From: a virus
Direction: 5' to 3' (one strand)
Virus record (IMG/VR): IMGVR_UViG_3300008108_000036
Length of the DNA stretch: 64,000 nucleotides
Shown: piece by piece, positions 29,729 to 31,351 of the stretch
How positions within the stretch are numbered: position 1 is the stretch's first letter
Layout of the letters: each line of letters starts with the position of its first letter
Made by a program: the position numbers and the translations under genes
Notes under the pieces: generated by a model
The model's input: the letters and a program-made list of their open reading frames with translations, nothing else
What the model was told of the DNA's origin: nothing
Databases searched by the model: none

Positions 29729-31351
29729 ATGGCAGCAAAACAACTACTATTCGATGAAACAGCAAGACACGCCCTTCTTAAAGGCGTAGAAAAGCTTGCA
29801 GCAGCAGTCAAGGCTACACTCGGACCTTCAGGTCGCAATGTTATCCTTGATAAAAAATTCGGCAGCCCTACGATCACCAAAGACGGCGTTACGGTTGCTA
29901 AGGAGATCGAACTTGAGGATCCATTTGAAAACATGGGAGCTCAACTCATTCGCGAAGTTTCCAGCAAAACCAGTGACATCGCTGGCGACGGCACCACCAC
30001 AGCCACCGTTCTTGCTGAAGCGATCTATCGCGAAGGTGGCGCCAATCCAACTTCGCTTCAGCGCGGCATCAACAAAGCTGTTGATGCCATCGTTGCCGAG
30101 ATCGCCAAGATCTCTAAGAAGGTCAAAGACAGCGCTGAGATTGCTCAAGTAGCCACCGTTTCAGCAAACTGGGACACTACCATCGGCCAAATTATCGCTG
30201 ACGCGATGGACAAGGTCGGCAAAGACGGCACTATTACTGTTGAGGAAGCCAAATCGATCGAAACCTCCCTCGATGTCGTTGAGGGCATGCAGTTCGACAA
30301 AGGCTACCTTTCACCCTATTTCGTGACAAACTCTGAAAGTTTAGAGGCATCACTTGATAGTGCTTACATTCTTATTCATGAGAAGAAAATTAGCAATTTG
30401 AAAGACTTGCTTCCAATTCTCGAGAAGATCGCCAAAACCGGCAAACCTTTCCTCATCATTGCGGAAGATGTAGAAGGTGAAGCTCTTGCAACCCTTGTTG
30501 TCAACAAGCTCCGCGGCACACTACAAGTTTGTGCAGTGAAGGCTCCAGGATTCGGCGACCGCCGCAAAGCGATTATGGAAGATATTGCTGTTCTTACAGG
30601 AGGCAAGTGCATCACAGAAGACCTTGGAATCAAGCTCGAGAATCTCACCCTAGAAGACCTCGGTCGAGCGAAGAGAATTGTGGTTGATAAAGAAAATACT
30701 ACAATTATTGAAGGAGAAGGAAATCAGTCAGATATTCAAGGACGGACAGCTCAAATCCGCAAACAAATTGACGATACAACTAGCGATTATGATCGTGAAA
30801 AACTTCAAGAACGTCTTGCTAAATTGGCTGGAGGGGTTGCGGTAGTAAATGTAGGAGCAGCAACTGAAACCGAGATGAAGGAAAAGAAGGCTCGTGTAGA
30901 AGACGCCTTACATGCAACTCGCGCAGCAGTTGAAGAAGGTATCGTTCCTGGTGGAGGAGTTGCATTAATCAGAGCACAGAAAGCTCTTGAGTCTCTTAAC
31001 CTTACAGGAGACGAGGCAATCGGAGCTGGGATCGTATTCAGAGCAATCGAGCAACCATTACGCACTCTTGCTGATAATGCAGGGCAAGAAGGTGCCCTAA
31101 TTGTCCAAGAGGTTAAGAAGCGTTCTGGGGCTGAAGGATACAATGTAGCTACAGGAGAATATGTTGACCTAATTAAAGCTGGTGTTGTAGATCCTGCTAA
31201 GGTTACCAGAAGTGCATTGCAAAATGCTGCCTCGATTAGCGGACTACTTCTTACAACAGAAGCACTCATTACTGAAATTCCTGAAAAGGAGAAAGCTCCA
31301 GCTATGCCTTCAGACGGCGGCATGGGCGGAATGGGTGGTATGGGATATTAA
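29729..31351 (+). CDS. groEL: Chaperonin GroEL with a 6-aa in-frame deletion in helix D
   Basis: [33 protein letters not shown] tail. Confidence 0.98.

Follow-up and report, generated by a model that had tools for sequence, protein, structure and literature searches.

Can a phage-borne chaperonin lose part of the contact between its two rings, and does such a loss mark a property of the phage or a one-off event? The question is raised by the window analysed here, the whole 64,000-nt stretch of virus record IMGVR_UViG_3300008108_000036, whose groEL gene lacks six codons from the segment encoding helix D. A preliminary description had taken the product for a host-derived GroEL shifted toward single-ring or uncoupled operation, with a damaging mutation or an assembly artefact as fallback readings.

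The chaperone cassette and its origin

The window derives from the genome of a T4-like myovirus. Its genes include those for an SbcC-like protein, a family-B DNA polymerase, a DnaB-type helicase, a large terminase and a tail sheath, and the polymerase, terminase and sheath bear out the earlier assignment of this viral DNA to a phage. Megablast of window positions 27000-33000 against deposited phages returned no match. Behind a gp32-type gene stands a chaperone cassette in the order dnaK-groES-groEL, with a GC content of 0.38-0.43 against a window background of ~0.32. The cassette and its surroundings comprise the following features.

27445..29325, + strand: phage dnaK, 626 aa (PF00012), first gene of what appears to be a captured host chaperone operon
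29380..29685, + strand: phage groES, 101 aa, co-chaperonin gene directly 5' of groEL (PF00166 on the identical gene in contig L001)
29729..31351, + strand: phage groEL, 540 aa, host-derived group I chaperonin allele without six codons (basis: open reading frame, PDB GroEL matches, PF00118 in relatives, AlphaFold2)
30035..30040, + strand: deletion junction, G103 (GGT, 30035-30037) followed by GGC (30038-30040); relatives have 18 nt encoding LKNVTA here
31370..31403, no strand: terminator-like palindromic hairpin with a 14-bp stem and A/T runs on both sides, closing the cassette after groEL (consensus match only)
31429-32493: FolE2, type-2 GTP cyclohydrolase I (PF02649), immediately following groEL in each related phage contig; possibly belonging to a 7-deazaguanine or folate-related pathway

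By sequence, the groEL product is unmistakable as a group I chaperonin (GroEL/Cpn60). It aligned with solved GroELs over residues 1-539 (HMMER, E-values of 7e-234 to 4e-205), was 62% identical to Salmonella GroEL (BLASTP) and carries the GDGTTT nucleotide-binding motif at the N-terminus of helix D (within residues 85-96). A GroES/Cpn10 gene adjoins it (29380-29685), and its relatives carry PF00118. Outside the gap the protein is intact, with the GGM tail kept and no stops.

The closest cellular counterparts were GroELs of Verrucomicrobia (Spartobacteria/Chthoniobacterales-like; P0011 and P0012), to which the window GroEL is 91-92% identical; for the other two genes, the identity between host and phage proteins was 78% (DnaK) and 57% (GroES). 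The dnaK-groES-groEL order is common to the phage and to three host-like Verrucomicrobia contigs (L008 2692-6641; L009 2610-6641 in two of them), and this shared operon, together with the GroEL identity, upholds the earlier view that the phage GroEL is host-derived. The GC content at third codon positions (GC3) of groEL was 0.28-0.40 in the phage copies and 0.74-0.83 in the host copies, and synonymous sites were saturated between phage and host chaperone genes. With 92% of residues kept and GC3 shifted toward that of the phage, groEL has evidently long been resident in the phage. These observations point to an old capture of the chaperone operon from a Verrucomicrobia host, with strong purifying selection since, and the operon match is a clue to the host of the phage. 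A literature search for phage-borne DnaK plus GroEL in Verrucomicrobia phages gave nothing relevant. As in the present case, the viral GroEL/GroES genes described from environmental phages (Marine et al. 2017, PMC5649160) encode phage-borne group I chaperonins, often with groES; a term search of that paper found neither inter-ring contacts nor DnaK-linked cassettes, its one mention of DnaK standing in the reference list.

Selection on groEL within the phage lineage was estimated by the Nei-Gojobori method. Between phage alleles dN/dS was 0.008-0.018 at dS of 0.14-0.21, and in the most diverged phage copy, where synonymous sites were saturated, dN was only 0.02. The six codons absent from the window vary among the other alleles, synonymously only (CTG/CTT/TTG/CTC, AAT/AAC, GTG/GTC, ACC/ACA/ACT and GCT/GCC/GCA); the encoded residues never change.

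The codon history of the gene is not uniform along its length. In the lineage of the window and L001, nt ~151-750 of groEL (window 29880-30480) had a GC3 of 0.44-0.64, more host-like than the 3' part, and nucleotide identity to the sampled hosts was 82-87% over nt 151-600, except in one 150-nt interval at 77-80%. The 3' part had a GC3 of 0.24-0.28 and 68-75% identity to the sampled hosts, and the diverged phage copy on L004 had a uniformly low GC3 of 0.16-0.34. Judged by these sequence profiles, the patch at 29880-30480, which contains the deletion site, looks like the product of a later gene conversion by a host groEL.

The missing segment in the window and its relatives

The preliminary description had placed an in-frame 18-nt gap at 30020-30050 in an otherwise intact protein, and was correct in both place and description. 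Aligned with solved GroELs by HMMER, the window protein reads AEAIYREG and then has a gap of six residues directly after E102-G103, and BLASTP against Salmonella GroEL (numbered as in E. coli) identified the missing residues as L104, K105, A106, V107, A108 and A109. In the DNA, comparison with three near-identical phage contigs showed an exact 18-nt gap (missing bases TCTGAAAAATGTGACCGC) with a 1-nt placement ambiguity, such that the G103 codon at 30035-30037 directly abuts the codon that normally follows A109. Zero other changes from these contigs were found within 75 nt on either side. Direct repeats suited to slipped-strand deletion were sought at the junction and none was found, the microhomology amounting to 1 nt. 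A complex event or chimeric join was considered and rejected, as there is no SNP cluster near the deletion and the nearest difference from L001 and L002 lies at 30835.

The alignment to the closest phage and bacterial GroELs that the preliminary description had proposed as a check was carried out, and the six residues were present in seven phage contigs and three hosts. All seven related phage contigs, which come from seven samples, share the gene order of the window at 79-99.9% nucleotide identity and encode a 546-aa GroEL with LKNVTA. Three of them (L001-L003), deposited in three sources (JGI, NCBI and ENA) and 98.9-99.9% identical to the window in nucleotide sequence, have the same phage gene order and encode P0001, the closest protein among 5.8 billion clusters. 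This 546-aa intact allele equals the window GroEL at all positions (100% identity outside the gap) and differs from it in having LKNVTA at the gap. The other four contigs, from other samples, are 97.5%, 97.2%, 92.5% and 79% identical to the window, and all carry 546-aa alleles with LKNVTA. The host-like Verrucomicrobia contigs L008-L010 likewise keep all six residues, and GroEL is 546 aa long in the hosts (P0011 and P0012).

Near-clonal phage relatives differ from the window by 3-11 substitutions. Across 19729-40956 (~21 kb) the 18-nt deletion is the only indel of the window relative to its relatives, and it is the sole indel separating L001-L003 from the window, barring a 233-nt gap of L001's own. 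The window also has private SNPs at 28752, 30835 and 32427 and thus represents an independent haplotype. Between its groEL and the gene for P0001 there is one synonymous change (dS 0.0026), so the deletion must be very recent.

Some of the assemblies at this locus have oddities of their own. L001 lacks 233 nt at 15209/15210 (corresponding to window 34920-35152), which splits the large terminase gene into 169-aa and 332-aa open reading frames; the terminase is intact, at 669 aa, in the window and in L002, and the gap in L001 could be either a defective variant or a misassembly. Contig ends fall at window ~29359-29513, inside groES or just after dnaK, in three cases (the end of L012 and the start of L002, both from the same NCBI assembly, and the end of L013), and these repeated ends mark the chaperone cassette as a weak point for assemblers. 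Among the database proteins, P0006 (587 aa) contains a 41-aa internal duplication, and P0271 is a partial protein with its N-terminal equatorial segment duplicated in tandem.

The deleted form was then sought in wider collections. An exact look-up of the 540-aa product found it not to be on record, and a search with residues 82-126 among 5.8 billion protein clusters yielded no gap-free match and no second deleted form. The best true matches in that search were intact phage alleles at 88% identity, the shortfall being the six-residue gap alone. P0271, which had the top score, was rejected as a second deleted form, both copies of its duplicated segment carrying the six residues. A junction pattern had no match in viral_contigs and metagenome_contigs; the control pattern for the intact allele was likewise unmatched, so this result speaks neither for nor against the deletion. 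On comparison of these sequences, the deletion is private to the window record and is not a trait of the phage lineage.

To place the shortening among GroELs at large, we surveyed the spacing between T91 and G119 in 144 GroEL segments, which came from the 150 best representatives in a library of 1.84 billion proteins and from several deposited phage GroELs. The spacing was 27 in 133 of the 144 and shorter in 4, the window included, as follows.

Window GroEL: 21
Phage EL gp146 (L019 19159-20835): 22, five residues shorter
Flavobacterium phage vB_FspM_immuto_3-5A GroEL (L018): 26, shorter by one residue, at the turn between helices D and E
P0191, an unusual protein of 764 aa: 16, its helix-D region being 11 residues short of normal

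The canonical spacing was seen in the further deposited phage GroELs that were checked (Bacteroides SJC03, Vibrio 2.275.O, Vibrio pv27 and a 735-kb uncultured phage).

Expected behaviour of the shortened protein

In E. coli GroEL, helix D extends from G88 to A109. Across the two-fold axis, K105 in one ring forms a salt bridge with the A109 carbonyl of its partner ring, and the K105A mutation removes the negative cooperativity between rings while leaving the structure otherwise as it was (PMC5941174). The segment lost from the window GroEL is the C-terminus of helix D with both K105 and A109 of this left-site contact, and the helix falls short of its full G88-A109 length. The earlier statement that the lost residues carry an inter-ring contact of negative allostery is thereby confirmed. 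At the right site, alignment to Salmonella GroEL showed the salt-bridge pair R452 and E461 to be conserved, with S463 replaced by A and V464 by L. R452 and E461 are residues mutated in the engineered single-ring variant SR1.

An AlphaFold2 model of the window GroEL built on a 96-sequence alignment had a pLDDT of 92.7 overall and ~85 near the deletion. It matched 8bl2_A and 4aaq_A in Foldseek with TM scores of 0.92-0.95 and an rmsd of 1.8-1.9 Å, in keeping with a predicted three-domain GroEL fold. In the model, helix D is predicted at residues 89-101, followed by a five-residue turn (102-106) and helix E from 107. A pLDDT of 39.7 obtained with 12 near-identical sequences reflects the shallow alignment and is no evidence of misfolding. 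AlphaFold2 is insensitive to destabilising deletions, and the model therefore speaks to geometric closure of the chain, not to stability.

A close parallel is E. coli GroEL K105A (PDB 4WSC), treated together with a 'piston' model of helix D by Lorimer, Fei and Ye (2018, PMC5941174); like the window GroEL, this mutant keeps the right-site pair R452-E461. K105A, however, is a point mutant whose tetradecamer is otherwise identical to wild type, whereas the window GroEL is without six residues, or ~1.7 helical turns. Compared with K105A, its D-E turn must be rebuilt, and its stability is uncertain. If the protein is made, the analogy leads us to expect either a K105A-like loss of ring coupling or a weakened assembly; with R452 and E461 in place, we do not expect an obligate single ring. 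Co-assembly of the deleted phage GroEL with host subunits is speculation.

A second parallel is gp146 of Pseudomonas phage EL, whose helix D is a turn shorter than that of GroEL, whose ring contacts are rearranged and which forms single rings with ATP (Bracher et al. 2020, PMC7185714). Like the window GroEL, gp146 is phage-encoded and has a shortened helix D (by five residues, against six), and its ring-ring interface (with 1:1 ring contacts, PMC7185714) is altered, as that of the window protein would be. The differences are considerable. EL gp146 is very diverged, with many indels and without a GroES partner (PMC7185714), whereas the window GroEL is 92% host-like, has one indel and is encoded next to groES; moreover, the shortening is a fixed family trait in gp146 and private to one record in the window. 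The appeal of the preliminary description to single-ring phage chaperonins thus has a true precedent, although in EL the shortening is fixed and the protein is far diverged and works without GroES (PMC7185714).

Deletion, artefact or adaptation

We consider it somewhat better than an even chance that the window carries a recent, in-frame 18-nt deletion, private to this one assembled record, in a groEL that is otherwise intact throughout the lineage. Under this reading, the whole dnaK-groES-groEL operon would have been taken from a Verrucomicrobia host, the captured groEL would have come under very strong purifying selection as its codon usage drifted toward that of the phage, and one haplotype would then have lost LKNVTA, the six C-terminal residues of helix D (E. 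coli L104-A109). Provided that the protein is produced and folds, helix D would stop ~1.7 turns early, the rings could no longer make the left-site contact K105-A109 at their interface, and the path by which the ATP sites of one ring exert negative cooperativity on those of the other would be cut. The right-site pair R452-E461 would stay, so that a double ring uncoupled as in K105A, or a weakened and partly defective assembly, would be likeliest, and not a purpose-built single ring; these functional effects are extrapolated from E. coli mutants. Such an allele would probably be neutral to mildly harmful, and the phage may get by with it because a 92%-identical GroEL is available from the host. 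That the deletion is in frame says little on tolerance, as one in three deletions would be so by chance.

A possible, though less probable, explanation is that the real genome has the 18 nt and that they were lost in assembly, polishing, contig joining, sequencing or template switching during MDA. The deletion is a singleton among eight records of the phage lineage, at a site so constrained that the spacing is exactly conserved in 133 of 144 diverse GroELs. Metagenome assemblies of this locus are also visibly prone to error, as seen in the terminase gap of the JGI contig L001, in contigs of two assemblies that break within groES or directly after dnaK, in the internal duplication of P0006, a related GroEL encoded on an ENA contig, and in the tandem-duplicated partial P0271. 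Moreover, the host-like, higher-GC patch that contains the deletion is one in which phage and host reads could tangle. Against an artefact, the longest exact match between phage groEL and the sampled host genes is 23-26 nt, and with no direct repeat and 1 nt of microhomology at the junction, collapse of a k-mer graph is not expected. The absence of any other indel over ~21 kb is unlike a noisy long-read consensus; this clean background and the lack of a flanking repeat count against sloppy consensus building.

Selection for the deletion as an adaptation of the phage chaperonin to uncoupled rings or a single ring is, in our judgement, improbable, despite the precedent of phage EL gp146 with its shorter helix D and its single rings with ATP (PMC7185714), an in-frame, codon-exact deletion in a gene that is otherwise intact and adjoined by its own groES, and an AlphaFold2 model that accommodates the change (pLDDT 85 locally, 92.7 overall): the deletion is absent from all seven related contigs, near-clonal ones (3-11 substitutions) included, and so gives no sign of having spread or become fixed, the intact segment is conserved in the phage lineage at a dN/dS of ~0.01, R452 and E461 are unchanged, and gp146 is a highly diverged, GroES-independent protein in contrast to a window GroEL that is 92% host-like. 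As a property of the phage, the proposed shift toward single-ring or uncoupled operation could not be sustained, given seven of seven related contigs with an intact segment, dN/dS of ~0.01, a deleted form found nowhere else and the retention of R452 and E461. The fallback readings of the same description, a damaging mutation or an assembly artefact, are better supported than its single-ring inference. In sum, the window encodes a phage GroEL of host origin that is ordinary except for its one-off deletion.

We regard it as improbable that the deleted allele is real, forms the majority in the population it came from and codes for a functional chaperonin with uncoupled or separate rings. Were this true, it would show how nature could reach, in one step, the helix-D shortening that is fixed in EL gp146, affordable to the phage as the host supplies normal GroEL. 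To our knowledge, the role of the helix-D contact has so far been probed only with engineered mutants; an allele that is real and active would offer a natural test of this contact in GroEL assembly and inter-ring signalling. On present evidence the main value of the case is one of caution, in that a structure-based reading of one metagenomic record failed against seven sister records. The firmer biology is that of a T4-like Verrucomicrobia phage in which strong purifying selection has preserved an entire dnaK-groES-groEL operon of host origin.
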